64,000 bases of DNA from an uncultured Methanosarcinales archaeon (GCA_964362535.1 CAYIEN010000005.1:1320-65319); one strand, 5' to 3'; shown: positions 1,357 to 21,405, counted from the stretch's first letter. The notes: generated by a model not told the origin, from the sequence alone. Numbers and translations: made by a program.

Positions 1357-1382
1357 AGTATTTCTCCTTGCACTTGATGCAA

Positions 1383-1456
1383 TGGACTGGCGGGGATTTG
1401 AACCCCGAGCCTCACCGCTGCCAGCGGCGCGTTATACCGGGTTTAACTACCAGCCC
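1383..1456 (-). tRNA. tRNA-Ala (anticodon GGC)
   Basis: Hand-folded 74-nt cloverleaf. Acceptor GGGCTGG/CCAGTCC with the G3:U70 Ala identity pair. D stem GTTA/TAAC, anticodon stem CGCCG/CGGTG with loop CTGGCAG, T arm CGGGG-TTCAAAT-CCCCG, discriminator A. No encoded CCA. Confidence 0.85.
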
Positions 1457-1471
1457 AACTTGGAGCGTGTA

Positions 1472-1543
1472 TGGACACGCCGGGAATCGAACCCGGAGCC
1501 TCATCGTTGCGAACGATGCGTCATACCGTTAGACCACGTGCCC
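1472..1543 (-). tRNA. tRNA-Ala (anticodon CGC)
   Basis: Hand-folded 72-nt cloverleaf. Acceptor GGGCACG/CGTGTCC with G3:U70. Anticodon stem CATCG/CGATG with loop TTCGCAA, T arm CCGGG-TTCGATT-CCCGG, discriminator A. No encoded CCA. Confidence 0.85.
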
Positions 1544-1579
1544 AATCACGCGCCCCAATACGTCGTTGTGCTGAATGAG

Positions 1580-3432: not shown

Positions 3433-3690
3433 TTATTCTCCTTCGTGGCACGTGCAGGCCATGAGTTTTTTGGTGCATCCTTTGCAGGGCTTGCACATCG
3501 GACACAATTTGAGCGCGTGAAGTAATTTGTGCGTGTAACCGCAGTCTCGACAGGAAGGGGTATCTGATGAATAATTAAAGGAAGGGTTTTGTTTAGCCAC
3601 ATTCTTTTTCACATCAGTGACTCTATTTCGCACGGAAGTTTTATTCTTTCTCGCAGCAGCGACTCTTTTCCGCGCAGAGGTTTTCTTCAT
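3433..3690 (-). CDS. small Cys-rich (zinc-binding-like) protein with basic N-terminal tail
   Basis: 85 aa. CRDC...CPMCKPCKGC...CTC cysteine cluster. N-terminal tail MKKTSARKRVAAARKNK resembles the tail of the next gene. Confidence 0.45.
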   Translation of the reverse strand: MKKTSARKRVAAARKNKTSVRNRVTDVKKNVAKQNPSFNYSSDTPSCRDCGYTHKLLHALKLCPMCKPCKGCTKKLMACTCHEGE

Positions 3691-4994
3691 TGATTCCTCA
3701 CCAACTGCGAAATGCGCGCCCCGATGACGTGCGCAGTGGAAATCGGAGTAGTTGCTGCTTGGAGCGCAATTGCTAAGTCAGGATCTTTATGCACGTCGGC
3801 GACCCATTGTGCGAAGTCGTTGCGTGCGTTGGTGACGTGGTGGTTGAATGTTTGCGGGTCCATGGTACGGATTGCTTTGTGCAGTTGGGGCAAGCTGCTG
3901 ATGATGATTCCTGTTTTTGTGCGGAATGCGAGCGATTGGTGCACAGGTTTCAAAACGCGACCGGCGAGTTCTTTTTCAACGGGTTTTTTCCGGTTATCGT
4001 CGTTGCGGGTGCTGTATTTCATTTTGATTGCTTGTTTGGCCGCCGAAACAATGTGGGTCGACTTGAGTCCGTACAATTTGAGCAGTTCGTCAGGTGTGCC
4101 TGATTGTCCGAATTTGTTTTGCACGCCGATGCGGAGGATAGGAACAGGATGTGTGCTACTCAACAATTCTGCGACTGCTCCGCCCAATCCGCCAAGGACT
4201 TGGTGTTCTTCTGCCGTTACGACGCATCCGCAGTTTTTTGCGACGGTGATGATTGTTGTTGCGTCGAGTGGTTTGACCGTGTGGCAGTTGACGACGGTTG
4301 CGTTGATGCCTTCTTTTGCGAGGAGTTCGGCGGCGACCATTGATTCGTAGACCATGGTTCCCATTGCAACGATGGCGACGTCGGTGCCTTCGCAGTAGAG
4401 TTCTGCTTTGCCGATGGTGTAGGGTGTTGCTTCGGTGGTGACAATGGGTGTTTTGTCGCGTGCAAATCTGAGATAGACAGGTCCCGGATATTCTGCGGCT
4501 GCGATGGTTGCTTTGCGGGCTTCAATGGCGTCGCAAGGAACCAAGATGGTCATGTTTGCGATGGGTCGTACGATGGCGACGTCTTCGATTGCTTGGTGTG
4601 TTGCGCCGTCTGGTCCGACTGAAATGCCTGCGTGTGCGCCTGCAATCTTTACGGGGACGTTGTTGTAGCAGATGGTGGTTCTGATTTGTTCCCAGTTTCG
4701 TCCGGGAGAAAACATTGCGTAGCTTGAGATGAAGGGTATTTTGCCTGCGACGGCGAGTCCTGCGGCGACGGAGGCCATGTTTTGTTCGGCAACGCCCATT
4801 TCGATAAAGCGATCAGGATGTTTTTGTTGAAATACGAGGGAGCGTGTGCTTTCGGTTAAGTCTGCGCAAAGCACCATGATATTTTTGTTTGCTTCTGCTG
4901 CGATGACAAGTCCTTCGCCGTAACCGTTACGAATCGGCGTGTATGCAAGTGCTCCGTTGATGTTGACTAATTGCATTTTGGGATTGATACGCAT
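3687..4994 (-). CDS. transketolase, C-terminal (pyrimidine-binding) subunit, with ~110-aa C-terminal extension
   Basis: Residues 1-~320 match split-transketolase C subunits (GVAEQNM, HAGISVGPDGATHQ, EEHQVLGGLG). Residues ~326-435 are extra. Confidence 0.9.
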   Translation of the reverse strand: MRINPKMQLVNINGALAYTPIRNGYGEGLVIAAEANKNIMVLCADLTESTRSLVFQQKHPDRFIEMGVAEQNMASVAAGLAVAGKIPFISSYAMFSPGRNWEQIRTTICYNNVPVKIAGAHAGISVGPDGATHQAIEDVAIVRPIANMTILVPCDAIEARKATIAAAEYPGPVYLRFARDKTPIVTTEATPYTIGKAELYCEGTDVAIVAMGTMVYESMVAAELLAKEGINATVVNCHTVKPLDATTIITVAKNCGCVVTAEEHQVLGGLGGAVAELLSSTHPVPILRIGVQNKFGQSGTPDELLKLYGLKSTHIVSAAKQAIKMKYSTRNDDNRKKPVEKELAGRVLKPVHQSLAFRTKTGIIISSLPQLHKAIRTMDPQTFNHHVTNARNDFAQWVADVHKDPDLAIALQAATTPISTAHVIGARISQLVRNQ

Positions 4995-5858
4995 TTAGTC
5001 AGCTCCTGCTGTGATTTGGTCGCGCCAATGGTTGAGTTCTGCCAAAGCGACGTCTGCTTGTTCTTTGGTGGGTGGTTTTCCGTGCCATTCGTGGTCGTTT
5101 TCCATGAACGAGACTCCTTTGCCTGGAATGGTGTGTGCGATAATGACTGTCGGTTTTTCGTAGACTGCTTTTGCTTCGTTGAACGCGTCGATTAAGTGTC
5201 GGTGGTTGTGGCCGTCGACTTCGATGACGTGCCAGCCGAACGATTCGTATTTCGCGCGTAAGGATTCGAGAGGCATGATGTCTTCGGTGTGTCCGTCGAT
5301 TTGGATGTTGTTGCGGTCGATGACTCCTGTTAAATTGCGGAGTTTGTTTTTGCCTGCGAACATGGCTGCTTCCCAGAGTTGTCCTTCGTCGTGTTCTCCG
5401 TCGCTCATTAAGCAATAGACTCGCCATTTCTTTTTGTCCATGAGCGCTGCGTATGCCATGCCGCATGCTTGGCTGAGTCCTGAGCCGAGTGGTCCGGATG
5501 TAGTTTCGATGCCGGGCAATGAACCTCGGTGAGGGTGTCCTTGTAATCTGCTTCCGAGTTTGCGGAGTGTTTGGAGTTCTGCGCGGGGGTAGTAGCCTGC
5601 GTTTGCCAAAGTAGCGTATTGCACGGGGCAGATGTGTCCGTTGCTCAGCACAGCTCTGTCACGTTCGTCCCAGTCGGGTTTTGCCGGGTCGTGGTTTAAG
5701 ATGTTGAAGTAGAGTGTGGTGAAGACATCAGCCATGCCTAACGGTCCGCCACTATGTCCAGAGCCTGCAGACACAAGGGAATTGATGAGGTCTTGTCTGA
5801 TAGTGTTAGAAAGGAGTTTCAGCTGTTTGATATCAGTCACTCTTTTGAATACTGCCAT
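4995..5858 (-). CDS. transketolase, N-terminal (TPP-binding) subunit
   Basis: 287 aa. SGHSGGPLG, GSLPGIETTSGPLGSGL, MSDGEHDEGQLWEA motifs. Abuts the C subunit with no gap. Confidence 0.9.
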   Translation of the reverse strand: MAVFKRVTDIKQLKLLSNTIRQDLINSLVSAGSGHSGGPLGMADVFTTLYFNILNHDPAKPDWDERDRAVLSNGHICPVQYATLANAGYYPRAELQTLRKLGSRLQGHPHRGSLPGIETTSGPLGSGLSQACGMAYAALMDKKKWRVYCLMSDGEHDEGQLWEAAMFAGKNKLRNLTGVIDRNNIQIDGHTEDIMPLESLRAKYESFGWHVIEVDGHNHRHLIDAFNEAKAVYEKPTVIIAHTIPGKGVSFMENDHEWHGKPPTKEQADVALAELNHWRDQITAGAD

Positions 5859-5914: not shown

Positions 5915-6559
5915 TTATTTGAGTTCTTTAAGAAGGAGCTTGAACGTCTTCTTCAAATCTTTCGCTGTCAGTGCGCTTCCCACAACAAATTTATTCGCGC
6001 CTGCTTTGTGGCAGATTGCGAGTGTTCCGTGATGAATTCCTCCATCAACCTCAATGGCAATTTTTTTGTTCCACTTGCGGATTTGTTTGATTTTATTGGT
6101 TTGGTCGATGAATTGGGCGCCCATGAATCCAGGATGAACCGTCATGACGGTTACTTGGTCTACTAATTTCAGGAATGGTTTTATTTTGAGCGCAGGAGTT
6201 TCTGGTTTCAGAGCTATGCCGACCTTCAACTTGTGGAATCTTGCGTGGCGGATGAATCGTTCAACGTGTTTTGCGTCCGGCATGCTTTCAATGTGGAAGA
6301 TGACTGTCTTTGATTGCGGAATGTGTGCGATGTCATGCAAGTGGTGTTCGGGATACAAAACCATGAGGTGGAATTCGAATGCGGTTTTTGTTTTGATGTC
6401 GACTAAATCGCGAGGAAGAAGTGTGGTGTTTGGGACGAAGTGGCCGTCGCAAATGTCGACTTGCAATGTTTTGCCTACTTTTGAAACGAGTTTGATGCGG
6501 TCGAGCGCTTCGTGGCGGGTGTGCGAAAGGACGGCAGGGATGATTTCGGTTTTCATCAT
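5915..6559 (-). CDS. rpe: ribulose-phosphate 3-epimerase
   Basis: 214 aa. VDICDGHFVPN, HLMV, MTVHPGFMGAQF, EVDGGI motifs. Confidence 0.85.
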   Translation of the reverse strand: MMKTEIIPAVLSHTRHEALDRIKLVSKVGKTLQVDICDGHFVPNTTLLPRDLVDIKTKTAFEFHLMVLYPEHHLHDIAHIPQSKTVIFHIESMPDAKHVERFIRHARFHKLKVGIALKPETPALKIKPFLKLVDQVTVMTVHPGFMGAQFIDQTNKIKQIRKWNKKIAIEVDGGIHHGTLAICHKAGANKFVVGSALTAKDLKKTFKLLLKELK

Positions 6560-7017
6560 GATTCGTATCTGTCGATTTTTTTCAGTCGTCGAGCGTGTCT
6601 TGTTTCGCCGCTGAATTCGGTTTTGAGCCAGACATCAATAATTTTTTTTGCAGAAGCAAAAGTCATGCCCATGTTTGATTTATCAACTGTTTTGCCGCCT
6701 GCTAAGCAGAGGACGTTTGCGTCGTTGTGGAGTCTGCTGAACTTTGCGGTTTGAACATCCGAAGGAGCGACTGCGCGTGCGCCTTTGACTTTGTTGGCCG
6801 CAATACACACACCTTCTGCCGAGCCGCACACAACGATGCCTTTGCTGTCAGTCTTCACTGCCATTTCCGCGACGGGGATGGCAAAGTCAGGATAATCGTC
6901 ATCTTTGTCGTAAGACCACGCGCCTAAGTCGCGAACAGAAATGCTTTTTTTCTTTAAGTAGACCTTAATCTGCTCTTTCAAGTCATAGCCTGCGTGGTCT
7001 GCTCCAAGATATATCAT
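6556..7017 (-). CDS. rpiB: ribose-5-phosphate isomerase B (RpiB/LacAB family)
   Basis: 153 aa. MIYLGADHAGYDLK N-terminus, GIVVCGSAEGVCIAANK active-site region. 4-nt overlap with rpe. Confidence 0.85.
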   Translation of the reverse strand: MIYLGADHAGYDLKEQIKVYLKKKSISVRDLGAWSYDKDDDYPDFAIPVAEMAVKTDSKGIVVCGSAEGVCIAANKVKGARAVAPSDVQTAKFSRLHNDANVLCLAGGKTVDKSNMGMTFASAKKIIDVWLKTEFSGETRHARRLKKIDRYES

Positions 7018-8804: not shown

Positions 8805-9797
8805 TTAAACATCTCGTTTTCGAAGTATCCAGATGAACCCGCCAAGAAGGGCAAGACCGAGAATGACGCCGAGCACTTGAGCAGCTGTGGATGTGAAGAA
8901 GGGTGTGTTGGTGAGCGAGTCGTTCATGGCATAGAACGCTGTCATGCTCCACGGGATGAAGCGAGTTACGGTGAGTTCGATGAAGCTTGTTCCTCGCCAC
9001 CACACCATGATGGCGCCGATGGTGATTAAGATGGCTGCGCTGATGAGGTTGAACGTGTGAATCTCGTATTTGCCAATCTTGAGTGTTTTTCCGGTCCAGC
9101 GTGCCCAGTCGAATTTGTCGGACAAAGCTGCGATGATGATGAGGGGTATGCCGACGCCGAGGGCGAAGAATGCGAGCATGATGGCGCCTTGCAGTACGCT
9201 GCCGGTTGTTGCTGCCAAAAGTAAAATGCCTCCGAGTACGGGTCCGATGCAGGGGCTCCAGCCGAATGCAAAAGCAAAGCCGAACAAGACTAATCCCCCA
9301 GGCTTCTTCGTCAGCAACTTAGGATGGAACGTTCCAAATCCTTTGTTGAAGAGCAAGAGGAATCCGAACAGGATGAATATCAAACCTGAAAAGATTGCGA
9401 AGGGTCCGCGATATTGGTTGATGAACGTACCGGCGAATGCGGCAGCAATTCCTAACAAAATAAATCCTATCATCATGCCGAGCGTGAATAGTGAAGTCAT
9501 CATCACGGCTTTTTTTCGTTCTTTGAACAGGATGGTGAAGAAGGTGGGCAACAAAACAAATCCGCAAGGACTGGTAAAGCTTATGATTCCGGCCAAGAGC
9601 GCTGCGAGGAAGGTGATGCTAGCTGCCAATTGATTACGATATTCAATAATCTTCAAAACGCCGAGGGGTAATGTTGAAGAGTTGGTGGCGGTAGCGTGGT
9701 CAAATTCGTCCTGCGGAGTCATGTGTGACACGCCATCATGGGCGAATACAACGGTGGCTAATAGCAAGAATACCAGAATCCACACGCTCGTTTTCAT
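8805..9797 (-). CDS. ccdA: CcdA/DsbD-family thiol:disulfide electron-transfer membrane protein
   Basis: Start set at MKTSVWILVFLLLATVVFA (signal-like). The longer ORF would overlap fba. Paired membrane cysteines FTSPCGFVLLP and WSPCIGPVLG, 6+ TM segments. Confidence 0.8.
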   Translation of the reverse strand: MKTSVWILVFLLLATVVFAHDGVSHMTPQDEFDHATATNSSTLPLGVLKIIEYRNQLAASITFLAALLAGIISFTSPCGFVLLPTFFTILFKERKKAVMMTSLFTLGMMIGFILLGIAAAFAGTFINQYRGPFAIFSGLIFILFGFLLLFNKGFGTFHPKLLTKKPGGLVLFGFAFAFGWSPCIGPVLGGILLLAATTGSVLQGAIMLAFFALGVGIPLIIIAALSDKFDWARWTGKTLKIGKYEIHTFNLISAAILITIGAIMVWWRGTSFIELTVTRFIPWSMTAFYAMNDSLTNTPFFTSTAAQVLGVILGLALLGGFIWILRKRDV

Positions 9798-9846
9798 ACC
9801 GTTACAAGGAGTGTAATGCTTTATAAATGTTACGGACGTAAAAAAT

Positions 9847-10764
9847 TTAAGCTTTCCCTTTGCTTCCAAACAGTTCCATTCTATGCTCGACAACCTGCTG
9901 GAGTAATGCTTTTCCTGCGGTTAAAACACGGCGAGGGTCAATATCATCAGGGTGTTCGTGCAAATACTCGCGCATGCCGGTTACAAACGCAAGTCGCAAA
10001 TCAGTATCAGTATTTATCTTGCAAATGCCGTAATGAATCGCTCGTTGAAGTTGAAGTTCAGGCACTCCTTCTGCAGTTCCTAATTTTGCGCCGAAATCGG
10101 TTGCTTTCTTGATGAGCCAATCAGGAAGCGAAGACGCGCCATGTAAAACAAGTGGTACAGAAACAACTTCTCGAATGACCTGCAAACGTCCGATGTCGAG
10201 TTTGGCTGCGCCGTTGAATTTGTACGCGCCGTGAGATGTGCCGATTGCAATCGCAAGTGAGTCGCATTTTGTTTCTTTTACGAATTGCACGGCAACCGCG
10301 GGATCGGTATAAACAATAGTGCGAGAGGAAACGTTGTCTTCCGCGCCACCGATGGTGCCGAGTTCTGCTTCGACGGAAACGCCCTTTTCTTCTGCCCATG
10401 CAACAACTTTTTGTGTGTTTGCTATATTTTCAGCGAGTGGCAAATGGCTGCCATCATACATAATTGAAGTATAGCCAATATCAATACATTTTTTGATGAG
10501 TTTCAAATCTTTGCCGTGGTCTAAGTGTAAAGCGAAGGGCATGTTTGAATTGCGAGCAGCATTGGCGATTAAGCAATGTAGTTGTTCAAGTCCGGCGTAC
10601 TGTATTGCTCCTTCAGAAGTTTGCAGTATTGCGGGCGCTTTTTGTGCTTCTGCAGCAGAAACAATTGCTTGCAAGATTTCGAGGTTGTTGACGTTAAAGG
10701 CTCCCACGGCGTAATGTCCTTTTTGTGCGAGTGCCAATAGTTTTGCGCCAGTGACGAGTGTCAT
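9847..10764 (-). CDS. fba: class II (metal-dependent) fructose/ketose-bisphosphate aldolase
   Basis: 305 aa. LHLDHG, GTSHGAYKF, LVLHGASS motifs. Confidence 0.85.
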   Translation of the reverse strand: MTLVTGAKLLALAQKGHYAVGAFNVNNLEILQAIVSAAEAQKAPAILQTSEGAIQYAGLEQLHCLIANAARNSNMPFALHLDHGKDLKLIKKCIDIGYTSIMYDGSHLPLAENIANTQKVVAWAEEKGVSVEAELGTIGGAEDNVSSRTIVYTDPAVAVQFVKETKCDSLAIAIGTSHGAYKFNGAAKLDIGRLQVIREVVSVPLVLHGASSLPDWLIKKATDFGAKLGTAEGVPELQLQRAIHYGICKINTDTDLRLAFVTGMREYLHEHPDDIDPRRVLTAGKALLQQVVEHRMELFGSKGKA

Positions 10765-12028: not shown

Positions 12029-12436
12029 TTACGAAGTAGCTGCTTTCGCTTTCACATCAGGTCGTTCTTCGTAGGGCAAGACAGTGATGTTGCCTTCCAT
12101 GTCTTGCTGGTACTGGTCTCGGTATTTGTAAAAGCCGGTTTCGGTGAAGATGTAACTCCATGATTTGCCTGGCTGGATGACGGTCGAGGGTTCCATTCCC
12201 CAGAGCCAGATGCTTTTGACGAAGGGCATGTTGTTTATCCACTTGATGCGGTCGCCTTGGTAGACCGTGATTGCTTTCGGCGTGAATGTATAACCTTTGA
12301 TTTCGATTTCTTGGTATCCTGGGTTGATGAAATCGGTGGTGCTGTTTGTGGGCTGCGTGTCGATGACGTCGGGTTTCGGCGTGCAGGCTGTCAGTAACAA
12401 TAACAGCAATAAACTAAACGAAAGTATTTGTTTCAT
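12029..12436 (-). CDS. lipobox lipoprotein with cupredoxin-like domain lacking metal ligands
   Basis: Start at MKQILSFSLLLLLLLTAC (lipobox LTAC). FTPKAITVYQGDRIKWINN... beta-sandwich pattern, no Cys/His ligand set. Confidence 0.5.
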   Translation of the reverse strand: MKQILSFSLLLLLLLTACTPKPDVIDTQPTNSTTDFINPGYQEIEIKGYTFTPKAITVYQGDRIKWINNMPFVKSIWLWGMEPSTVIQPGKSWSYIFTETGFYKYRDQYQQDMEGNITVLPYEERPDVKAKAATS

Positions 12437-13013
12437 GGTGTACCTCGGGATGTTCATGTTTTCTGACAAACCATGCGCTGATGAAGAGCAGGATGCCGAT
12501 GATGAGTGTGATGCCAAACCATAATGCGATGCTGTTGAAGACGCTGGTGATGGCGGGTGTGACAAATGCGCTTGCTCCGGAAGGAACGAACGCGAGTACG
12601 GTTGTTTTTGCGAATGCTACAATAACGAAGAGTCCGGCGATGGTGAATGCGATGGCTGCGTGCAATAGTCGCGAGGCCCAGCAGGTGGGGACGAGCATGA
12701 GCACAACCAAGAGTGCGAGCACGGCGAGCAAGAGCTGTATCGCGAGGACGGATAGGTAGTTGTGTCCTGCTTTGCTCAACAATACTGCTCCGATGCCTTC
12801 GTCGGGTTGGTTGCTGAAGCAGCCGATGATACCGCATTCGTATGTTTTGGGATACCACTTATCAAATGCAGTGGGATCGTTGGCATTTACTAATGGTCGA
12901 AGTGTTGCTTCGCTCGTGACACCGACCATCACGTAAGTAAAGATAGTTGTAATTAACCCAACGCACAATAAGATGGTGCTCAGGATTGTGATTGTTGTTC
13001 TCCACCAGACCAT
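12414..13013 (-). CDS. hypothetical polytopic membrane protein
   Basis: 199 aa, about 5 hydrophobic segments. TATA 23 nt upstream of the ATG. Confidence 0.5.
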   Translation of the reverse strand: MVWWRTTITILSTILLCVGLITTIFTYVMVGVTSEATLRPLVNANDPTAFDKWYPKTYECGIIGCFSNQPDEGIGAVLLSKAGHNYLSVLAIQLLLAVLALLVVLMLVPTCWASRLLHAAIAFTIAGLFVIVAFAKTTVLAFVPSGASAFVTPAITSVFNSIALWFGITLIIGILLFISAWFVRKHEHPEVHHETNTFV

Positions 13014-13061
13014 ATATAGAAAGCTAAATTTTCAGTTTATAAAGATTGTGAAACGGGAAGG

Positions 13062-13829
13062 TTATTGCCTTACCTGATTTTTACGGATTTTGAGCCAGAG
13101 AACAATACCAACCCCGACCATCGCCACGCTCAACCACTGCCCAATCGTCAAAAAGCCCCACATGACTTCGGGTTCTTTGAAGTATTCGACGACGAAACGG
13201 CAGGCGCCGTACATGATGAAGAATAACGCGAAGAGTGTGCCGTGGGGCAATTTCTTTTTGCTTAAAAAGAGTAATACTGCAAAAATAACTAAGTTGTAGA
13301 ATATTTCATACAATTGCACGGGGTGTCGGGGGACTTCATCTACTGCGGTGTAAATCATTGCCCATGCGCCGTTAAACGCGCGGCCAACTAATTCTTGATT
13401 AAACAAATTACCAAGTCTACCGAATGCTTGAGCCAATGCGCCAGGCACAATCAAAACGTCAGTGAATTGCCAGAATGATAAATGGTGTTTGCGGCTGAAA
13501 TACCAGACGGAAAGGATGCAGCCGATGAATCCGCCGTGGAAACTTAACCCGCCTTTCCAGACGGCAAGAATGTCCAAAGGATTTGCAAAATAGTAGGATG
13601 GCTGGTAAAACAGCACTTCAAAAAGTCGCGCGCCAACAACCATGGAGACGACAATCCAGAAGTATGCGTTGTCGAAGTCTTTCAAAGTCATAGAAAATCG
13701 TCCGTGCTTAATCAGGTGTGTGCCGTAATAGTATGCGGCAAACACGCCAAGTGCATAAAGCAGTCCGTACCAGTAAATCGTAACAAAGCCAAATGAAAAC
13801 AGGACGGGGTTAAGCGTGTTGACGAGCAT
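13062..13829 (-). CDS. lgt: prolipoprotein diacylglyceryl transferase (bacterial-type Lgt)
   Basis: Start at MLVNTLNPVLF. Matches to the E. coli Lgt signature blocks: WKGGLSFHGGFIG, GRLGNLFNQELVGR, RHPVQLYE. Confidence 0.88.
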   Translation of the reverse strand: MLVNTLNPVLFSFGFVTIYWYGLLYALGVFAAYYYGTHLIKHGRFSMTLKDFDNAYFWIVVSMVVGARLFEVLFYQPSYYFANPLDILAVWKGGLSFHGGFIGCILSVWYFSRKHHLSFWQFTDVLIVPGALAQAFGRLGNLFNQELVGRAFNGAWAMIYTAVDEVPRHPVQLYEIFYNLVIFAVLLFLSKKKLPHGTLFALFFIMYGACRFVVEYFKEPEVMWGFLTIGQWLSVAMVGVGIVLWLKIRKNQVRQ

Positions 13830-14616
13830 GTAGTGCCTCCATGACGCGGGCGATGTAAACGCGAATAACGAACAGTCCGGGGAAGACGAGGAGTATTCCG
13901 AGGATGCTTCCCGCAATGCTGTTTTGGACGAACGTCCACATGATAAGTGCGTTCACGACCAAAACCGTTCCGACAAGGAGTGCGGCTGCAGGAATGAGCG
14001 TGTCAAGTTTTCGCGTGCCTAGAACAAAGGCCATTTTGCTGGCGTGTTTCCAGGAGTCTTTGATGATGGCTGTTGCGAGGATGAAAAAGTAAACGATGAT
14101 TGCGATAATGATGATGAATATGGTGTGTGGAACAGTCGAAGCGGCTTGTTCAGTGACTTGTTGTACGAGTATTGCGCGCAAATCAATGACGGTAACAACC
14201 AAATTCAGAATGCTGATAGGTACAAACCATGCGGCACAAAGTTTTGCGAACTGCCCGAGAGGAGTGCCTGCGGCGAGTTTCCACGCAAAGCCTTGAAAGA
14301 CGGAGTAGAGGGCGTAGACGATGAGTAACAGAATGACAATCCAGAACAGAATCATGAGCGTAAATGGTAAAGCTGTTTTGTCGAAGAACAACTGCATCAG
14401 GCTGGGAGTTGTATAAGTGGCAGCGGCTGCAGACAAAAGCGTACTAAATGTTTGCGTTAAGTTTCCAGCGGCGATGAAGAGTTGTTCGCGGGGAAACTGC
14501 GTAATAAAACCGTACAAGAAAAGAAAGGCAATGTCAACGACGCAAGATAATAAGACGTGCAGTGGGCGTGTCCAGAGCGCGGTGAGTGCGTGTTTTGCGG
14601 CTGTTAACGCAATCAT
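13810..14616 (-). CDS. hypothetical polytopic membrane protein
   Basis: 268 aa, 6+ hydrophobic segments. Overlaps neighbouring genes at both ends, operon-like. Confidence 0.5.
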   Translation of the reverse strand: MIALTAAKHALTALWTRPLHVLLSCVVDIAFLFLYGFITQFPREQLFIAAGNLTQTFSTLLSAAAATYTTPSLMQLFFDKTALPFTLMILFWIVILLLIVYALYSVFQGFAWKLAAGTPLGQFAKLCAAWFVPISILNLVVTVIDLRAILVQQVTEQAASTVPHTIFIIIIAIIVYFFILATAIIKDSWKHASKMAFVLGTRKLDTLIPAAALLVGTVLVVNALIMWTFVQNSIAGSILGILLVFPGLFVIRVYIARVMEALHARQHA

Positions 14617-15122
14617 GTCTTTCCGCCGACAATCAGGGTGCCGTCGTTAGTGCTGGAGGTGTCGTCGTATTTGAATTCGCCTTTGATGGTACCATAAAAC
14701 TCAACAAGAACGGTTTCGTCGGGCGCGATTGTTTTTGCAATGTCATATTCTTTGACGTTGAACGTGTGGCTTTTGGTGTCGTCGTTCGAAATTGTCAATT
14801 TGACACGGTCTCCGTGGCCTACGGTGAGAATTTTCGGATCAAATCCAGATGCGGTGATGGTGATGGGGATTTGCAATGTTTTTCCAGAGCGATAGTTTTC
14901 CGCGTCCTGCTGCGGAATGTTGCTTAATCCGGAAGAAGGCGACGCGCCGAGCTGGTCTTGGACCGGCGCGACAGGGATGTCTGAGACTTTTTCTTGTTCC
15001 TGTGAGGAGTAGGTAGAGTCTGTTGATTGTGTTGTATCTTTTGTTTCGATTGTTGAAGGTGCGGTTGTGCATGCTGCGAGCAAGAGTGCTAAGCAGAGTA
15101 AAAGAGAGATTGTTTGTTTCAT
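14613..15122 (-). CDS. lipobox lipoprotein with cupredoxin-like domain (no Cys ligand)
   Basis: MKQTISLLLCLALLLAAC (lipobox LAAC), S/T/Q-rich linker, then ITITASGFDPKILTVGHGDRVKLTISNDDTKSHTFNV cupredoxin-like pattern. Confidence 0.55.
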   Translation of the reverse strand: MKQTISLLLCLALLLAACTTAPSTIETKDTTQSTDSTYSSQEQEKVSDIPVAPVQDQLGASPSSGLSNIPQQDAENYRSGKTLQIPITITASGFDPKILTVGHGDRVKLTISNDDTKSHTFNVKEYDIAKTIAPDETVLVEFYGTIKGEFKYDDTSSTNDGTLIVGGKT

Positions 15123-15499
15123 TGTGTTGCCTCCGTGACTTCTATTGCGCCGAGCATGTCTCGGTGTCCTGTTCCGCAGGGTACGCTGCAGCGGTATTCG
15201 AATATGCCTGCTTTGTCCGCGACAAAGGTCATGTCTGTTGTTTTGCCTGCTGGAATGATGGCTGATGCGCGAAATGCGGGTATAGAAATGCCGTGTTCAA
15301 CGTCAGAGCTGGTTAAATGAATCTTGACCGTATCTCCTTTGTTGACCGTGATGAGTGCGGGTTCGAATGCGTATTGTTTCACTACCATGTCAAATTCTTT
15401 GGTTTCACCGGTTGTCGAGACGGGCTGCGATGCTGAAGTGCAACCCACTAGTAATAAGCACAGGATGAAAAGAAACACTGCATTCATACCGCCCCTCAT
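15119..15499 (-). CDS. lipobox lipoprotein, CuA-type (COX2-like) cupredoxin
   Basis: Lipobox LLVGC. DVEHGISIP then exactly 34 residues to CSVPCGTGHRDM, i.e. the H-x34-C-x3-C-x3-H-x2-M CuA ligand pattern. Alternative start at 15487. Confidence 0.7.
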   Translation of the reverse strand: MRGGMNAVFLFILCLLLVGCTSASQPVSTTGETKEFDMVVKQYAFEPALITVNKGDTVKIHLTSSDVEHGISIPAFRASAIIPAGKTTDMTFVADKAGIFEYRCSVPCGTGHRDMLGAIEVTEATQ

Positions 15500-15542: not shown

Positions 15543-15917
15543 CTATATTGCTATTTCAACGTTCAACTTGTCAAAAGCAACGATTGGTTTTACTTTTGTG
15601 CGTTCGTCTTTGCTTGTTTCTAATGTGATGATTCCGAGGCTTGCGAGTATGGTTATGTCGGTGTTGACGCTTTTGAGGTCGCGATGCACGAGATGAGCGA
15701 GTTCGTAAATAGAATCAGGTTCTTTTTCTTTGATGACGCGCAGTAATGCGATTCTTTTTTCGGTGAGTATTTTTCGTAGTGTTGCCATCGTTGCAAAAGA
15801 AAGCTCGTAATGAGGGGTTATCTTTTTGCCGTTCTTGAGATCCATGTATGCTTGCGCAAATTCATTAAGCACTGTTTTTGTTTCTTTTACAGTTATCTTG
15901 ATATTTTTTGTTCTCAT
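15543..15917 (-). CDS. HTH DNA-binding protein, putative antitoxin (TumA / HVO_A0114-like)
   Basis: 124 aa. Central wHTH-like segment (IYELAHLVHRDLKSVNTDITILASLGII). 4-nt overlap with the upstream TumE-like gene. Confidence 0.5.
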   Translation of the reverse strand: MRTKNIKITVKETKTVLNEFAQAYMDLKNGKKITPHYELSFATMATLRKILTEKRIALLRVIKEKEPDSIYELAHLVHRDLKSVNTDITILASLGIITLETSKDERTKVKPIVAFDKLNVEIAI

Positions 15918-16210
15918 AGCTCACCTTTTCTGAGTTTTTCAACGTCGTCCATAAAATCGCTGATGACTGCCCACATATCTTTATAGGGATAAGGCATTAT
16001 TTTATTTCGTAGATGCTTATGGTGGTTGCTTTTGCCGGTTCCGTGATGCTCGTTATCATATCCAATGATTCTCTTTCCTTCCGAAACATAAACGAGGGAA
16101 TATACTTCACCTTCAGGATACGCTGGCGTAATGGGCACTGCCCAAATGTTCATTTCAATAATATCCCCGTTTGGTTCCACCTGTTTCAAATAAAACAGTT
16201 CTTCGCTCAC
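15914..16210 (-). CDS. TumE-like (DUF6516) putative toxin
   Basis: 98 aa. IIGYDNEHHGTGKSNHHKH block matches my recollection of the DUF6516/TumE family. Confidence 0.5.
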   Translation of the reverse strand: MSEELFYLKQVEPNGDIIEMNIWAVPITPAYPEGEVYSLVYVSEGKRIIGYDNEHHGTGKSNHHKHLRNKIMPYPYKDMWAVISDFMDDVEKLRKGEL

Positions 16211-16290: not shown

Positions 16291-16962
16291 ATGCGCATCG
16301 ATCTTCCCGTTCCGTTGGTTTTGCAGGAGAAAGATTCGGTGGAGTGCGGTCTTGCGGGACTATCGATGCTTTATGGATTCTATGGAAAAAGCAAAACAAT
16401 TGCTGAACTGAAGGAACACATCAAAATCCATGCTGTTGGAACGTATGCGCCGCAACTCGGGACATTTCTGAGAAAAGACGGATTTCACGTAGAAATCATC
16501 ACGCACCATCCATCGCTTTTCGTAAAAAAAGAACAACAACTCTCACAAGAAGAACTCAAAGAAAAATTCAAATTGTCGTTAGAAAAACAACAAACAGAAA
16601 ATGTCAAAAACGTACTGCAATACTTTCATGAATTTCTCGAAAACAAAGGAAAATTGACAGTTAAGATTCCGACGCCTGATGACGTTATTTTTCAGTTAAA
16701 GCAAGGCCATCCGGTCGGTGCCCTAGTGACGAGTAATTTTGTTCATGGTTCCAAAGCGGTTTTTAATTACCATTTTCTTCTTATCCGAGGCGTTACCGAA
16801 ACGGGATTCATTGTGAATGATCCTATTCCTGACGAACGTGGCGGCGTGAAGGAATACACGTTTGACGAGTTCAGATATGCGCTGTATGCAAGTGCTGCAG
16901 GAGACTTAGACAACGCATCACTATTCATTGCCTATCCTGACGTGCATACTCGACCAGCATAA
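16291..16962 (+). CDS. peptidase C39-like papain-fold cysteine peptidase (stand-alone)
   Basis: 223 aa. QEKDSVECGLAGLSMLYGFYG (oxyanion Gln + catalytic Cys) and HFLLIRGVTETGFIVNDP (His/Asp). GGAGGTG SD upstream. Confidence 0.6.
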   Translation: MRIDLPVPLVLQEKDSVECGLAGLSMLYGFYGKSKTIAELKEHIKIHAVGTYAPQLGTFLRKDGFHVEIITHHPSLFVKKEQQLSQEELKEKFKLSLEKQQTENVKNVLQYFHEFLENKGKLTVKIPTPDDVIFQLKQGHPVGALVTSNFVHGSKAVFNYHFLLIRGVTETGFIVNDPIPDERGGVKEYTFDEFRYALYASAAGDLDNASLFIAYPDVHTRPA

Positions 16963-17223: not shown

Positions 17224-18315
17224 TTACTGCGTAGGTTGTGTAACCAATTGTCCGTTGGTCAAGTTCTTTGCTGTTGTGCCGGGCAATAATTCAGTGTGTC
17301 TGAACACGTAAATATTGTTCTCAGCGGTTCCGACTTGGGACCAGACTTGTTGCAACGAAGGATAGAGTTGCGGGTCTCCCGTCATGACGATGGTGGGGAT
17401 CATTTCTATCTTGTTTGTCGCAATCAATTCTTTTGCTTCCGCACTTGAAACGTCAAGTGTTTTTTCGGTGTAGGGTTTGATGCCGAAGCCGAGCAGGATT
17501 TGTTTGTGCATGCTGACGTCGTAACAGGTGGTGCAGGTCGCGTCAACGAGGTTGATGAGGTTGACGTGTCCTCTGACCATTTTTGTTGCCAAATCGTAGT
17601 AGGGTGGCGCGATGGTTCGTAGAACAAACAATCCATCGGGGGCGATGTCTCCTGCTTGCTCCCAGGTTTGCGTGATGAGTTCGTATTCGGCAGCATCTGG
17701 TGATAACACAACGGCAGGAAGCTTCGTTAATGAATATGCCGCTATCATGCGCTTGCCGTCTTCGCTGGATGCCGTGTATTTTGTTTCCGAAGCGACAAAC
17801 ACTCCTGCGCTCTCGAGTTGTGCGCCAAGAACGGTAATGTTTCCACAGTCAGTACAGGTTCCTGCGTCTGCAAGAACATAGGTAATGGCAACTTTGCCTT
17901 TGACCGTGCTGCTTTGTACATCATAATAGGGTGCGGGTGAGTCAATCAACAAGACGCTTCCTGATTTGCGCGTGCCTTCAAGGGCAAGTGCGGAAGTATC
18001 TCCTTCGATGACAATGGCGGGCAATCGAGTGATGTTGTTCTCGGTTGCGAGTCGTTGCGCGTGCGCGTCAGTAATAGCGAGTTCTTGGGAGTTCTCCACT
18101 TTGTAGGTAGTACCCTTCAACAATTCAGCATAAACGGATTGCATATCAAAACAATCAGTACAATCTGCCGTGATCAAAGTAACTTCAATTTTGGGCAGTT
18201 TCGGTTCTGAAGCAGAACCAATGCCGGCGATTTGGTATGCGTTGAAGAGCATGACGACACCAATAAGACAAGCTAATACGATGTGGATTGGTCCGAATGT
18301 TTTTGTGTGTTCCAT
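17224..18315 (-). CDS. membrane-anchored protein with three tandem thioredoxin-like CxxC modules
   Basis: N-terminal TM. Three ~110-aa repeats, each with CTDC/CTDC/CTTC followed ~50 aa later by (L/I)P(A/T)(I/V)V and then PPYYD. Confidence 0.55.
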   Translation of the reverse strand: MEHTKTFGPIHIVLACLIGVVMLFNAYQIAGIGSASEPKLPKIEVTLITADCTDCFDMQSVYAELLKGTTYKVENSQELAITDAHAQRLATENNITRLPAIVIEGDTSALALEGTRKSGSVLLIDSPAPYYDVQSSTVKGKVAITYVLADAGTCTDCGNITVLGAQLESAGVFVASETKYTASSEDGKRMIAAYSLTKLPAVVLSPDAAEYELITQTWEQAGDIAPDGLFVLRTIAPPYYDLATKMVRGHVNLINLVDATCTTCYDVSMHKQILLGFGIKPYTEKTLDVSSAEAKELIATNKIEMIPTIVMTGDPQLYPSLQQVWSQVGTAENNIYVFRHTELLPGTTAKNLTNGQLVTQPTQ

Positions 18316-18324
18316 GTGTATACC

Positions 18325-18753
18325 TCAGAGTGGGCAGCCCGTTAGTGCAGACAATCGTTCAAGGGACTGGACGTTTTCGTACATTTGTCCGTTTATCTGC
18401 CACGTGGGTGTTTTTTTGATGTTGGGACCGTTGGTGTGGTCCTCGTACGTGATGAATTTGAAGCTTTTGCCGAACATGCCTGCTTGGTCTTGGGTGTAGC
18501 TGCACCATTCGATTGCGCCATACATGACTGCGTCTTTCTCTGATAAGCATTTTGCGAAAGAGTCGAGTCTGCCAGGCATCGCGAATGCGATTCCTGCAAT
18601 GAGCAAAACCAGCGTGAGCACGATGCCGCTTGTCCAATAGATTTTTTTGCGTCGAGACGCATGAGCTGAGTTTTTTGCCTGTAATGCCGCGTCGCGTTCT
18701 GCGTTGCGCTGGACTTGTTTCAGGCGTAGCTCTTCATGTCGGGAAGTATCCAT
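18325..18753 (-). CDS. membrane-anchored thioredoxin-like protein with degenerate active site
   Basis: TM at 40-58. FAKCLSEKDAVMYGAIEWCSYTQDQAGMFG...TPTWQINGQ...LTGC resembles the VKOR-associated Trx-like domain, but WCPHC is replaced by WCSYT. Confidence 0.5.
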   Translation of the reverse strand: MDTSRHEELRLKQVQRNAERDAALQAKNSAHASRRKKIYWTSGIVLTLVLLIAGIAFAMPGRLDSFAKCLSEKDAVMYGAIEWCSYTQDQAGMFGKSFKFITYEDHTNGPNIKKTPTWQINGQMYENVQSLERLSALTGCPL

Positions 18754-18798: not shown

Positions 18799-18987
18799 CT
18801 ATAGTGCTACGGATTCGTCTGTTGTTTCCGCGCAGGGGTCTTCAGTAGTTACTGAAGCGCCGACTCCGCATCCGCCGCCGACCGGTCCTGAGGCAGGTGT
18901 GTATGTTGCTTGACCAGTGGTGCATCCGCTGACGAAGACGAGCCCGATGATTGCGAGCACGAAGATTACTGTTCCGAGTTTGTTCAT
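18799..18987 (-). CDS. small lipobox lipoprotein (62 aa)
   Basis: Start at MNKLGTVIFVLAIIGLVFVSGC (lipobox VSGC). Mature part has GGGCG and DPC cysteines. Confidence 0.45.
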   Translation of the reverse strand: MNKLGTVIFVLAIIGLVFVSGCTTGQATYTPASGPVGGGCGVGASVTTEDPCAETTDESVAL

Positions 18988-18997
18988 GTTAGATACC

Positions 18998-19195
18998 TCA
19001 ACATCCGCCAACCATTGTTGGGAGATTCTGTAGTCCGGAGGGCACGTTGGAGCCACCGGATGTTCCTGTCGAGCTGACTTTGAAGGTTCCGCCCGCTATT
19101 TTTTGCTTGATGTCGTTGATTTGGAATGCTTGCGCGACGCTGATGACGAGCAATACTGCCAGAACAACTGCGATGATGATGTTTGTTTTTTTCAT
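18998..19195 (-). CDS. small signal-anchored protein ending LPTMVGGC
   Basis: 65 aa, one N-terminal TM. C-terminus is shared with the next gene. Confidence 0.5.
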   Translation of the reverse strand: MKKTNIIIAVVLAVLLVISVAQAFQINDIKQKIAGGTFKVSSTGTSGGSNVPSGLQNLPTMVGGC

Positions 19196-19286: not shown

Positions 19287-20114
19287 TTAGCAACCTCCAA
19301 CCATATTGGGCAAGTCTGCGCCGATGTCTGTTGATCCGGCATTGATTTTTTTGAGTAGTTGTACGTCGTTGAGCGCTGCGGGGGTTAACTCCATGTTGTT
19401 GTTGACAAGTGCAACGCCTTTTTCAACCATGTTTTTCGGGAAAAAGATGGATTTCCATCGCGTGACTTCCCAATAGATTTGTTCATCGGTCCAGTCGCCA
19501 GAATGCTGGGTGACTAAATACTTTGTGAGTCCGCGGATGGCAAGTGCGTGTGAGCATCCGCAAAGGTCGCGTCCGTTTGCGTCAGCGACGGCAGGTGCTG
19601 AGCAGCAGTATTCGCAGGAGATTTTGCTGACGGTGGAAACGTATCTTGTTTTTTGTTCGGGAGTTAGAGCGGAAGTGGCGATGGCACGGTCGAGTCGTGC
19701 GAGAACGGTGAGGCTGGGAACGGGGTCGTCGAACGAGACGCCAAGTTCTGTGCCGTATTGTTCGGGTGTGCCTGTGGGGATCATTGCTTTGATGACTTCG
19801 TTGACGACGTCGTCGTTTGCGTCGAGTTTGATGCTGCCGCTGGTTTTGTCCGCGGTCGGTCCGGCAAATCCTGTTCCGCCAGTGCCTCCCGATCCCAACT
19901 GCATGAGTTGGATGCCGTTAAAGACAACAACAAGAGCGATAACTGCAATAAGCAAATAGCTTAAACGTTCGATATTGGAAGAAGGTTCGTGATGTGTTGC
20001 GTGGTGTTTCGGTGAAGCGCTGGGCGTGGTTGCCTTTGCGTGTTCGTGAGCGTGTTCAGAGTGCGCGTGCGGCGCGTTTGGGTCTTCGTCTGGCTGAAAT
20101 ACTTTGATTGGCAT
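19287..20114 (-). CDS. membrane protein with His-rich N-tail and Cys-cluster ectodomain, ending LPNMVGGC
   Basis: Start at MPIKVFQPDE behind AAGGGGG. HAHSEHAHEH...HHATHH, one TM, CEYCC...CGCSHA. The longer track ORF runs through the promoter region. Confidence 0.55.
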   Translation of the reverse strand: MPIKVFQPDEDPNAPHAHSEHAHEHAKATTPSASPKHHATHHEPSSNIERLSYLLIAVIALVVVFNGIQLMQLGSGGTGGTGFAGPTADKTSGSIKLDANDDVVNEVIKAMIPTGTPEQYGTELGVSFDDPVPSLTVLARLDRAIATSALTPEQKTRYVSTVSKISCEYCCSAPAVADANGRDLCGCSHALAIRGLTKYLVTQHSGDWTDEQIYWEVTRWKSIFFPKNMVEKGVALVNNNMELTPAALNDVQLLKKINAGSTDIGADLPNMVGGC

Positions 20115-20319: not shown

Positions 20320-20676
20320 ATGAAAGAATTAGTAACAAAATTTGACGACATTCTCAGTCCGTTAGAGTCTGATGTGCTCGCAATCATTTGGCCAAACAAA
20401 CAAATGAAGGTGCGAGAGATTTACGAGCAACTCAAGAAAAAAAGAAAAGTCGCGTTGAGTTCAGTTGCCGTGATTCTTGACCGTTTGCATGACAAAAAGA
20501 TCGTGATGCGCACGGAAGAAGTCGCGCGTGGCGGAACAAGATATACTTACTCGCCTGCGGAAGACAAGAAGACGTTTGAAAAGAACGTTGTTGAAGAAGC
20601 AGTTAACAATCTCATAGAGTCTTTTGGTCCGGTTGCAGTGAATTATTTCAACGACCGATTCAGTAAAAAGAAGTGA
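20320..20676 (+). CDS. BlaI/MecI/CopY-family winged-helix repressor
   Basis: 118 aa. LSPLESDVLAIIW...REIYEQL...LSSVAVILDRLHDKKIV pattern. No C-terminal CxC metal motif. Confidence 0.8.
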   Translation: MKELVTKFDDILSPLESDVLAIIWPNKQMKVREIYEQLKKKRKVALSSVAVILDRLHDKKIVMRTEEVARGGTRYTYSPAEDKKTFEKNVVEEAVNNLIESFGPVAVNYFNDRFSKKK

Positions 20677-20679
20677 ACA

Positions 20680-21405
20680 ATGAACCTTGCTGACTTGATT
20701 GTGATTTTTGCGCAGAGTCCGACCTATGTAATGCTCACAATATTGACGTTGTTGAGCGCGTTTATCGTGTTGGTGTTTGCGCGCAGAAAAACACTTCCTG
20801 TCACGACACGAGTGTTTTTGATTTACGTGCATCTCGCGTTGTTGGTTGTTCCTGTTGCGTTGTTCGCGTACTCCAGCGGTTGCGCCATGCCAATGGTTGA
20901 TTGTACTTGGAAAACGACGCTTTATGCAGCGCCGTTCATTTTGCTCGGCCTGATCGCGACGGCAGGCATCATCGGATACTTTGTGCTTCCCCGAATGTAC
21001 AGCAAGAACGCGGTAAAGTCAGAAGATAACTCCTTGTTAAGATTCATCAAGCATCATTCGACAAAACACAATCTCAAAACGCCTGAATTATTCCTTGTTG
21101 ATTCGCGCGTGCCGATGGCGTTTAGCTTTTCGGCGTTCAAGCCGTCAATGTATCTATCTATAGGATTGATGGATTTGCTCGAGCGCAAGGAACTTGAGGC
21201 AGTTATTTTGCACGAGATTGGTCATTTGCATCACAAGAGCGCATTACTAAAGTTCTCATCGCATTTTGTGCGTTGGTTTAGTCCGATTGCGCATTTTGGC
21301 AAGAACACGATTGTGGATGAGGAAGAACATATTGCAGATGTGTTCGCGATCGACGCGCAAGGCACGGATAAGTATTTGACCGCAGCATATGAGAAAGTGA
21401 GATAA
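20680..21405 (+). CDS. BlaR1-like M56/M48 membrane zinc metalloprotease (no sensor domain)
   Basis: 241 aa, 3-4 N-terminal TMs, HEIGH zinc motif (ILHEIGHLHH). Starts 4 nt after the repressor stop. Confidence 0.7.
   Translation: MNLADLIVIFAQSPTYVMLTILTLLSAFIVLVFARRKTLPVTTRVFLIYVHLALLVVPVALFAYSSGCAMPMVDCTWKTTLYAAPFILLGLIATAGIIGYFVLPRMYSKNAVKSEDNSLLRFIKHHSTKHNLKTPELFLVDSRVPMAFSFSAFKPSMYLSIGLMDLLERKELEAVILHEIGHLHHKSALLKFSSHFVRWFSPIAHFGKNTIVDEEEHIADVFAIDAQGTDKYLTAAYEKVR

Follow-up and report, generated by a model that had tools for sequence, protein, structure and literature searches.

A bacterial-type Lgt in DPANN archaea, encoded in an operon with candidate lipoprotein substrates and a conserved membrane partner

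The prolipoprotein diacylglyceryl transferase Lgt is a bacterial enzyme for the lipid anchoring of proteins to the membrane; in bacteria it moves diacylglycerol from phosphatidylglycerol to the cysteine of the lipobox. Archaea have been said, in reviews and original papers as late as 2026, to have no homologues of Lgt, Lsp or Lnt (PMC6098224, PMC12462473, PMC13631571, PMC13251419). The statement is repeated in a 2026 follow-up (PMC13631571), and for Lgt the absence was reported in a study based on RefSeq genomes (PMC13251419). This absence is part of the argument that archaea have a machinery of their own, AliA/AliB. Here we describe an lgt gene on a 64,000-nucleotide stretch of DNA (the window; CAYIEN010000005.1:1320-65319 of assembly GCA_964362535.1, filed as an uncultured Methanosarcinales archaeon; positions are counted from its first letter). 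The source of the window is a DPANN archaeon of Woesearchaeota type, and the Lgt encoded there belongs to a widespread DPANN clade that corrects the absence statement. No mention of Lgt, signal peptidase II or other lipoprotein enzymes was found in the comparative-genomics papers on DPANN and Woesearchaeota, and GenBank automatic annotation already names these archaeal Lgts; the archaeal enzyme is known to databases, not to the field. What is new here is a canonical Lgt in an unexpected domain of life, a partner gene that looks obligate and the operon tie to the substrates.

13062-13829, minus strand: Lgt, homologue of prolipoprotein diacylglyceryl transferase, 255 amino acids (aa); matches PF01790, TIGR00544 and PDB entry 5AZB

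A preliminary description of this DNA had proposed a bacterial-type Lgt among lipobox-bearing proteins in an archaeal context, and the proposal holds: the Lgt is canonical and the window is not chimeric. The signature blocks named there, WKGGLSFHGGFIG, GRLGNLFNQELVGR and RHPVQLYE, are all present in the translation of the open reading frame (ORF), whose start is the ATG at 13829, in agreement with the N-termini of homologues. The Pfam LGT model (PF01790) matches with 247.7 bits (cut-off 24.9) over model positions 1-239 of 240, the NCBIfam equivalog TIGR00544 matches with 204.5 bits (cut-off 118.9), and E. coli Lgt (5AZB) is aligned at an E-value of 7e-39. The AlphaFold model, for which 25 homologues were used, has a predicted local distance difference test score (pLDDT) of 91.8. 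In a Foldseek search of the PDB its only significant match is 5AZB (E-value 8e-16, template modelling (TM) score 0.87/0.79, 32% identity), with the next match at an E-value of 0.55. In the model the Lgt fold is recognisable, with its seven helices, its arms and its central cavity; the signature motif G142-RLGNFINGELWG-154 is present as GRLGNLFNQELVG, and the H103-GG motif as FHGGF.

The catalytic residues were mapped by putting the window Lgt on E. coli numbering in an alignment of 201 sequences, with 125 on the DPANN side of the tree (22 in the window's subclade and 103 others) and 75 bacterial. Fourteen residues are the same as in E. coli (Y26, G27, Y30, H103, G142, R143, N146, N149, E151, G154, E202, Y235, R239 and E243), and they are invariant or near-invariant over the 125 DPANN-side sequences. 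According to mutagenesis, these residues are essential or lie within the buried hydrogen-bond network of the enzyme (PMC4728403). Within this network Y26, Y235, R239 and E243 are kept and R246 is replaced by Lys (K218 of the window Lgt), a substitution found in all 22 members of the subclade and in 18 of the 103 remaining DPANN-side sequences; no bacterial sequence out of 75 has it. In addition, E. coli M100 corresponds to L95; Leu is found here in most DPANN sequences, whereas 74 of 75 bacteria have Met. In one relative (P0010) a Tyr occupies the essential H103 position. The preliminary description had named loss of the catalytic Arg or His as a finding that would speak against it; R143, R239 and H103 are all kept, and R246 alone has changed, to Lys. 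R246K did not complement in E. coli (PMC4728403), although a strictly conserved Lys with the rest of the site intact suggests that the change has been compensated and that the site is not decaying; the gene apparently encodes a working enzyme. Judged by alignment and predicted fold, it can be regarded as a selectively maintained, true orthologue of bacterial Lgt, and that such an orthologue resides in an archaeal genome we consider virtually certain.

The window Lgt has 4,384 homologues at E<=1e-10. The closest are 54-76% identical and, where named, are called 'prolipoprotein diacylglyceryl transferase [Candidatus Woesearchaeota archaeon]'; at 40-48% identity some are named Woesearchaeota or Aenigmarchaeota. 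In a scan of one genome per species, the matches listed include metagenome-assembled genomes (MAGs) labelled Woesearchaeota and Nanoarchaeota and are mostly proteobacterial Lgts; among the matches listed, the nearest bacterial Lgts come from Betaproteobacteria, Desulfobacterota and Nitrospirae, at 36-43% identity. The window's own genome and its closest relatives are not among these matches, which supplied labelled bacterial and archaeal sequences for the tree. The phylogeny that the preliminary description had put forward as a check was run by neighbour joining. All sequences with an archaeal label or archaeal context fall on one side and all bacterial ones on the other, and the split of 16 archaeal Lgts from 37 bacterial ones is supported by 199 of 200 bootstrap replicates (unrooted tree). 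An unlabelled sequence adjoining the bacterial side is bacterial by context (MreBC, PBP2, RodA). Mutual identity among members of the DPANN clade goes down to 35-41%. The DPANN Lgts, from MAGs labelled Woesearchaeota, Nanoarchaeota and Aenigmarchaeota, form one large, old and diversified clade. Nearly all bacteria have Lgt, and RefSeq archaea were found to be without it (PMC13251419). The origin is most simply explained by one old transfer from bacteria to DPANN, its direction being inferred, followed by vertical descent. The horizontal acquisition suggested earlier does not stand as an isolated or recent event, and the bacterial source is a matter of parsimony.

The Lgt gene lies in a six-gene operon that runs from 15499 to 12029 in the order CuA-cupredoxin, cupredoxin, partner, Lgt, membrane protein, cupredoxin. 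By their coordinates, genes overlap at four of the five junctions. Its other members, together with a small lipobox protein 5 kb from Lgt, are as follows.

15119-15499, minus strand: CuA-type cupredoxin, predicted lipoprotein, 126 aa; lipobox LLVGC with Cys20; matches Cupredoxin_1 and COX2
14613-15122, minus strand: cupredoxin-fold predicted lipoprotein, 169 aa; lipobox LLAAC with Cys18; Cupredoxin_1, E-value 1.8e-13
13810-14616, minus strand: Lgt partner, membrane protein without known family, 268 aa, six predicted helices
12414-13013, minus strand: membrane protein without family match, 199 aa, always paired with the downstream cupredoxin
12029-12436, minus strand: cupredoxin-like predicted lipoprotein, 135 aa; lipobox LLTAC with Cys18; Cupredoxin_1, 29.6 bits
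18799-18987, minus strand: small predicted lipoprotein, 62 aa; lipobox FVSGC with Cys22; mature part ...PSGPVGGGCGVGA...DPCA

The four lipoboxes read in the preliminary description are borne out. When all six frames of the window were scanned with a strict lipobox pattern, it matched the three flanking proteins at 12029-12436 (MKQILSFSLLLLLLLTAC, Cys18), 14613-15122 (LLLAAC, Cys18) and 15119-15499 (LLLVGC, Cys20), all of them Cupredoxin_1 proteins, and the small protein at 18799-18987 (...VFVSGC, Cys22). In each ORF a basic n-region and a hydrophobic h-region are followed by LTAC, LAAC, LVGC or VSGC. No other gene in the 64 kb has a strict match, and none of the four is more than 7 kb away from Lgt. 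A fifth match (61199-61411, plus strand) is in a non-coding frame and is expected noise, since Markov-shuffled copies of the window give 1.06 strict matches on average. An origin of the lipoboxes by chance was rejected, with shuffles giving about one match per window and the four genic lipoboxes being conserved: for each of the four proteins the lipobox Cys is kept by orthologues, which come from three other assemblies. Lipobox density per 10 kb is 1.33 at archaeal and 0.36 at bacterial Lgt loci. Signal peptidase II (Lsp, PF01252) was looked for with jackhmmer and E. coli LspA in the window and in 86 loci, and with Pfam at E<=10 among the ORFs of the cluster, in each case without a match; the preliminary description had likewise seen no Lsp-like gene in the window. 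The best-supported reading is that the operon keeps Lgt and its substrates together, and it is quite likely, from gene order and lipobox conservation, that Lgt lipidates the neighbouring lipobox proteins.

The stop codon of the partner gene lies inside the Lgt coding sequence, in a 20-nucleotide overlap with the Lgt start, and homologues of 26-36% identity hold the same overlapping position in loci L001, L003, L084, L085 and L086 of other assemblies. With a hidden Markov model of the partner we scanned 13 distinct archaeal loci (the window, L001/L002, L003, L004, L005, L006, L007, L082, L084, L085, L086 with L091/L092, L089 and L093; L094 and L095 lay outside the scan). The ORF directly upstream of Lgt matched in nine of the 13, namely in the window, L001/L002, L003, L004, L006, L084, L085, L086 with L091/L092, and L093, which is labelled Aenigmarchaeota. 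L089 is a tenth, weak partner locus (hhalign E-value 4e-4, the alignment taking in the D and R motifs), L005, L007 and L082 gave no match, and neither did any of 77 bacterial Lgt loci. A 277-aa ORF without Pfam match overlaps the Lgt start in L094, in the position of the partner. At E<=0.001 the family has 261 representative clusters among 1.84 billion proteins.

The partner has no match in Pfam or NCBIfam and no PDB sequence match at E<=10, and hhalign comparison gives a probability of 0.6% with Lgt and 0.1% with the Lit of L007. Its structural model is all-helical with pLDDT 94.7; Foldseek finds nothing significant in the PDB, the best match being a choline-transporter-like protein (E-value 0.16, TM score <=0.41). 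A diverged Lgt paralogue, Lsp and Lit were each considered as identities of the partner and found no support in the hhalign, Pfam, PDB and Foldseek comparisons. According to the model and the charge distribution, the protein would have six helices with both termini in the cytoplasm. Near-invariant residues are D28 in the first transmembrane helix, W112, W130, P246 and R252 in the last helix, and they suggest an active or binding site inside the membrane. Two things had been left out of the preliminary description: this conserved gene, and the fact that the whole cluster has to do with copper and thiol redox.

Some DPANN lineages have Lit alongside Lgt. Lit moves the ester-linked sn-2 acyl chain of diacylglyceryl-cysteine to the free alpha-amino group. 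In L007, from a MAG labelled Nanoarchaeota (UBA9640), a full-length Lit (9361-10014; PF07314, 110.7 bits) overlaps the Lgt start; L095, a JGI contig, has the same layout of FEN-1, Lit and Lgt, with a Lit (6001-6642) that is 66% identical to the one in L007. At the third locus (L096, 6001-6705) Lit is found in a Woesearchaeota MAG and adjoins a family-B DNA polymerase and NucS, so that Lit overlaps Lgt in two of three loci. Within the window no third-step enzyme, Lnt or Lit, was found. The presence of Lit implies that at least the DPANN lineages of L007 and L095 produce lipoproteins with an ester-linked diacylglyceryl group and cleave off the signal peptide; the window's own lineage may do likewise. 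Because Lit holds the same position in sister lineages, a role in lipoprotein maturation is the most natural guess for the partner, and we would give it even odds. A more tentative idea is that partner and Lgt form a two-component, DPANN-specific machine for lipoprotein maturation in which the partner is a new enzyme or a lipid-presenting subunit. If so, the partner may make it possible for Lgt of bacterial type to function in a membrane that is archaeal or comes from a host, perhaps with ether lipids as substrate; alternatively, it may supply the missing step after lipidation, be it signal-peptide removal or N-acylation, where Lit would act in sister lineages.

The archaeal nature of the window, as stated in the preliminary description, is confirmed by five marker proteins scoring above their NCBIfam cut-offs: thermosome (808.9 bits), archaeal GluRS (TIGR00463), Spt5, archaeal L11 and SecE/Sec61-gamma. 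FtsZ, SepF, FKBP26 and a KaiC-type ATPase are also encoded, and base composition is even along the 64 kb. The order of genes is shared with other assemblies. It begins with a BlaI/CopY-type repressor and M56 peptidase, a His-rich protein, two small proteins and a 140-aa protein, continues with a triple-CxxC thioredoxin-like protein, CuA-cupredoxin, cupredoxin, partner and Lgt, and ends with the membrane protein and its cupredoxin, PfkB and class II aldolase (FBA). The whole order, from repressor to aldolase, is seen in L001, L002 (Logan), L003 (a 111-kb contig of Woesearchaeota MAG GCA_016203225.1) and L084 (a 293-kb ENA scaffold), and the block is syntenic in L094 as well. More distant contigs carry partner, Lgt and cupredoxin together with exosome subunits, RpoK and TrmB (L086) or with Nre and ribosomal protein S10 (L085).

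An artefact of assembly or binning, in which a bacterial Lgt cluster had been joined to or binned with an archaeal genome, might be suspected, as Lgt is otherwise reported from bacteria alone (PMC13251419) and as contigs with the cluster are filed under a 'Binatia bacterium' MAG (L094, protein P0015) and a 'Methanosarcinales' MAG (L006). We find it extremely improbable. The archaeal markers lie on one continuous 64-kb window of even composition, and the cluster with its flanks recurs in independent NCBI, ENA, JGI and Logan assemblies, on contigs of 100-500 kb that carry genes for exosome, RpoK, Nre, S10, FEN-1 or archaeal CCA-adding enzyme. The L094 contig (7.9 kb; GCA_035476335.1, 'Candidatus Binatia bacterium'), with a 60%-identical Lgt, is almost certainly itself mis-binned, because it has the exact Woesearchaeota gene order throughout. 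L006 is a short contig with partner, Lgt and lipoproteins filed as 'uncultured Methanosarcinales archaeon'. Chimera or contamination, which the preliminary description had named as a possible refutation, is contradicted by the archaeal markers of the same window and by the synteny in many independent assemblies, and was rejected.

Taken as a whole, we explain the locus by an archaeal Lgt orthologue that lipidates proteins of its own operon, with the partner in the same pathway and an old transfer as its origin; our rough probability for this explanation is 0.72. The cupredoxins and the small GGGCGVG protein would be exported via Sec-type signal peptides. Lgt would then move a glyceryl-lipid from a phosphatidylglycerol-type donor to the thiol of the lipobox Cys, and the resulting thioether lipid would anchor the proteins on the outside of the cytoplasmic membrane. 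The 268-aa partner, which is translationally coupled to Lgt, would serve the same pathway, whether by assisting Lgt as a subunit, by presenting the lipid or by catalysing a later step of maturation. Several points weigh against this explanation. R246 is Lys in every member of the subclade, and the same change in E. coli Lgt does not complement (PMC4728403). No Lsp is seen in the window or in any locus, so that the lipoprotein pathway is incomplete as far as seen, and Lit is found in sister lineages, not in the window's own. For the partner, whose role is guessed from gene position, similarity to Lgt, Lsp or Lit could not be detected. The bacterial side of the unrooted tree consists mostly of Proteobacteria, Nitrospirae and Desulfobacterota, a narrow sample. 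Finally, the activity of Lgt is read wholly from its sequence.

The preliminary description had left two possibilities for the lipid donor, an ester lipid or adaptation to archaeal lipids. The evidence leans slightly towards ester-linked phosphatidylglycerol of bacterial type, self-made or scavenged, over archaetidylglycerol. Y26 and R143, which in E. coli contact the ester oxygens (PMC4728403), are conserved, and the coupling of Lit to Lgt in sister lineages leans the same way. Two reports can be listed in support of an ester donor: some Woesearchaeota have bacterial genes for glycerol-3-phosphate dehydrogenase and fatty acids and hints of bacterial hosts (PMC8204110), and Woesearchaeota were reported without GGGPS and DGGGPS, key archaeal lipid synthases (PMC8421398). 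It is possible, if rather doubtful, that the DPANN Lgt, perhaps with its partner, has instead been adapted to ether-linked archaetidylglycerol and forms a diphytanylglyceryl (archaeol) thioether, doing a job like that of AliA/AliB. The host is after all an archaeon, the clade is old and stands apart from the sampled bacteria, and the substitutions R246K (22 of 22 in the subclade, 0 of 75 in bacteria) and M100L (most DPANN, with Met in 74 of 75 bacteria) would fit such an adaptation, as would a DPANN-specific partner that is translationally coupled to Lgt and missing from the 77 bacterial loci; moreover, archaeol-thioether lipoproteins exist in haloarchaea (PMC12462473). However, Y26 and R143, with their hydrogen bonds to the ester oxygens of the acyl chains, are unchanged; sister DPANN lineages couple Lgt with Lit, an enzyme dependent on an ester acyl chain; and R246 is kept in most other DPANN Lgts, some of them partner-bearing. 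The opposite stereochemistry of the glycerol backbone in archaeal lipids also counts against use of an ether donor. Less likely still is a repurposed homologue that kept the Lgt fold and lost lipobox lipidation, serving with the partner in phospholipid remodelling or scavenging, with lipoproteins processed by an AliA-type enzyme encoded elsewhere. R246K would inactivate the E. coli enzyme (PMC4728403), the partner belongs to no known family and DPANN are reported to have AliA 'with some gaps' (PMC12462473), all of which would suit such a change of function; but the catalytic network apart from R246 is invariant over a deep clade, Lys retains the positive charge, the gene is linked to conserved lipobox proteins across distant loci, and in sister lineages it is coupled with Lit, a lipoprotein-specific enzyme.

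Returning to the lipidation of operon proteins by Lgt, the candidate substrates are conserved. The CuA-type protein (15119-15499) carries the motif CSVPCGTGHRDM (C-x3-C-x3-H-x2-M), matches the NosZ C-terminal and CoxB domain models and has a conserved lipobox in its orthologues. The cupredoxin at 14613-15122, whose gene overlaps each neighbouring gene by 4 nucleotides, shows no apparent Cys copper ligand in its sequence, and its lipobox is kept by orthologues in L001, L003 and L084. Orthologues of the third cupredoxin (12029-12436) have LTAC and LAAC lipoboxes in L003 and L084. The pair of membrane protein and cupredoxin 3' of Lgt is found in L003 (212 and 133 aa), L084 (227 and 145 aa) and L094 (209 and 125 aa). 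In the small lipobox protein (18799-18987) both the lipobox and the GGGCGVGA motif are kept by orthologues of 63-68 aa in L001, L003 and L084. Genes around the operon are the following.

8805-9893, minus strand: DsbD/CcdA-type thiol-disulfide transporter; DsbD_TM, 49.6 bits; signal peptide without lipobox
17224-18315, minus strand: membrane-anchored protein with three thioredoxin-like repeats, 363 aa; one CxxC in each (CTDC, CTDC, CTTC)
18325-18753, minus strand: membrane-anchored protein with a possible thioredoxin-like C-terminus, 142 aa; weak Thioredoxin_4 match, E-value 0.049
18998-19195, minus strand: protein with an N-terminal hydrophobic segment, 65 aa; ends in ...NLPTMVGGC-COOH
19287-20114, minus strand: protein with a His-rich N-terminus, 275 aa, no family match; ends in ...DLPNMVGGC-COOH
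20320-20676, plus strand: BlaI/CopY-type (Penicillinase_R) repressor; PF03965, 61.5 bits; divergent from the cluster
20680-21405, plus strand: BlaR1-like M56/M48 membrane metallopeptidase; Peptidase_M56 (42.3 bits) and Peptidase_M48

Most of these genes recur in L001, L003 and L084. The triple-repeat protein, whose matches to Thioredoxin and Thioredoxin_3 are weak and below Pfam thresholds, is found in the same place in all three, and the 142-aa protein has syntenic counterparts of 138-145 aa there. The repressor has the same position in these loci, and the peptidase, presumed to be its sensor partner, is syntenic. The DsbD/CcdA gene of the window has a glutaredoxin-like gene near it, a DsbD/CcdA gene is close to the cluster in L084 also, and a YHS/HMBD P-type copper ATPase stands between the cupredoxins and the partner in L003 and L085. 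From its gene content, the cluster has the look of a module for copper and thiol-redox chemistry outside the cytoplasm. We also noticed that LP(T/N)MVGGC-COOH is the exact end of two otherwise unrelated proteins (18998-19195 and 19287-20114), strictly so in four loci; the C-terminal motif of the former is identical in its orthologues in L001, L003 and L084. The two proteins, neither of which matches a known family, adjoin the small lipobox protein with the GGGCGVGA motif, and their common end could be a metal-binding or a C-terminal modification signal. Between the CuA-cupredoxin and the thioredoxin-like genes lie a pair of small genes with a toxin-antitoxin or helix-turn-helix look (15543-15917 and 15914-16210, minus strand) and a Peptidase_C39-like gene (16291-16962, plus strand); in this gap relatives carry DUF302 and a 273-aa gene.

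Elsewhere in the window, two adjacent giant ORFs (47499-56864 and 56890-61215, minus strand; 3,121 and 1,441 aa) both have a hydrophobic segment at the N-terminus and probably encode large surface proteins. Transketolase is split (3687-5858, minus strand) into a gene for the N-terminal thiamine pyrophosphate-binding part (4995-5858) and one for the pyrimidine-binding and C-terminal parts (3687-4994), with RpiB and ribulose-phosphate epimerase genes adjoining. A tandem pair of tRNA-Ala genes (anticodons GGC and CGC) with 13 nucleotides between them is found at 1382-1544, minus strand. GC skew is positive in 30 of 32 2-kb bins, with cumulative skew up to 4.09 irrespective of gene strand, and AT skew mostly flips with gene orientation, at about 28-30 kb and at 46 kb.

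If partner and Lgt do form a two-component machine, bacterial-type and AliA-type lipoprotein pathways coexist in Archaea, and the DPANN clade offers a natural test of an enzyme crossing the lipid divide. The substrate of Lgt is a membrane phospholipid, and so the enzyme bears on the membrane lipids of uncultured, lipid-auxotrophic symbionts and hence on their hosts. The operon provides matched pairs of enzyme and substrate, Lgt with its cupredoxins, for assay on ester and ether lipids, and the partner gene makes a concrete candidate where new components of lipoprotein maturation are sought.

Compared with bacterial Lgt (E. coli, 5AZB/5AZC), the window protein has the same family, fold, signature and HGG motifs and Arg/Glu/Tyr network, at about 35% identity to the E. 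coli enzyme and 38-45% to Lgts from Betaproteobacteria, Desulfobacterota and Nitrospirae. It differs in its archaeal host and in R246K and M100L, and is shorter than E. coli Lgt (255 as compared to 291 aa), the alignment being split around E. coli residues 168-178. In E. coli lgt adjoins thyA, whereas here it shares an operon with genes for a clade-specific partner and for the presumed substrates. AliA and AliB of Haloferax volcanii (arCOG02177/arCOG02178) share with it the proposed attachment of a glyceryl-lipid to the lipobox Cys, and aliB genes, like the window Lgt, are often found near genes for predicted lipoproteins (PMC12462473, PMC13631571). However, AliA attaches archaeol and is only marginally Lgt-like (HHpred probability 29%; PMC12462473), whereas the window protein is a canonical Lgt. 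Lit (PF07314/TIGR01906), known from Firmicutes, takes the place of the partner in L007 and L095, and the partner of the window has no similarity to it. The halocyanin of Natronomonas pharaonis is likewise an archaeal copper protein of cupredoxin fold anchored through an N-terminal lipobox Cys (PMC12462473, PMC13631571). Its haloarchaeal host has AliA/AliB and no Lgt, whereas the cupredoxins described here include a CuA-type domain and are encoded together with Lgt.

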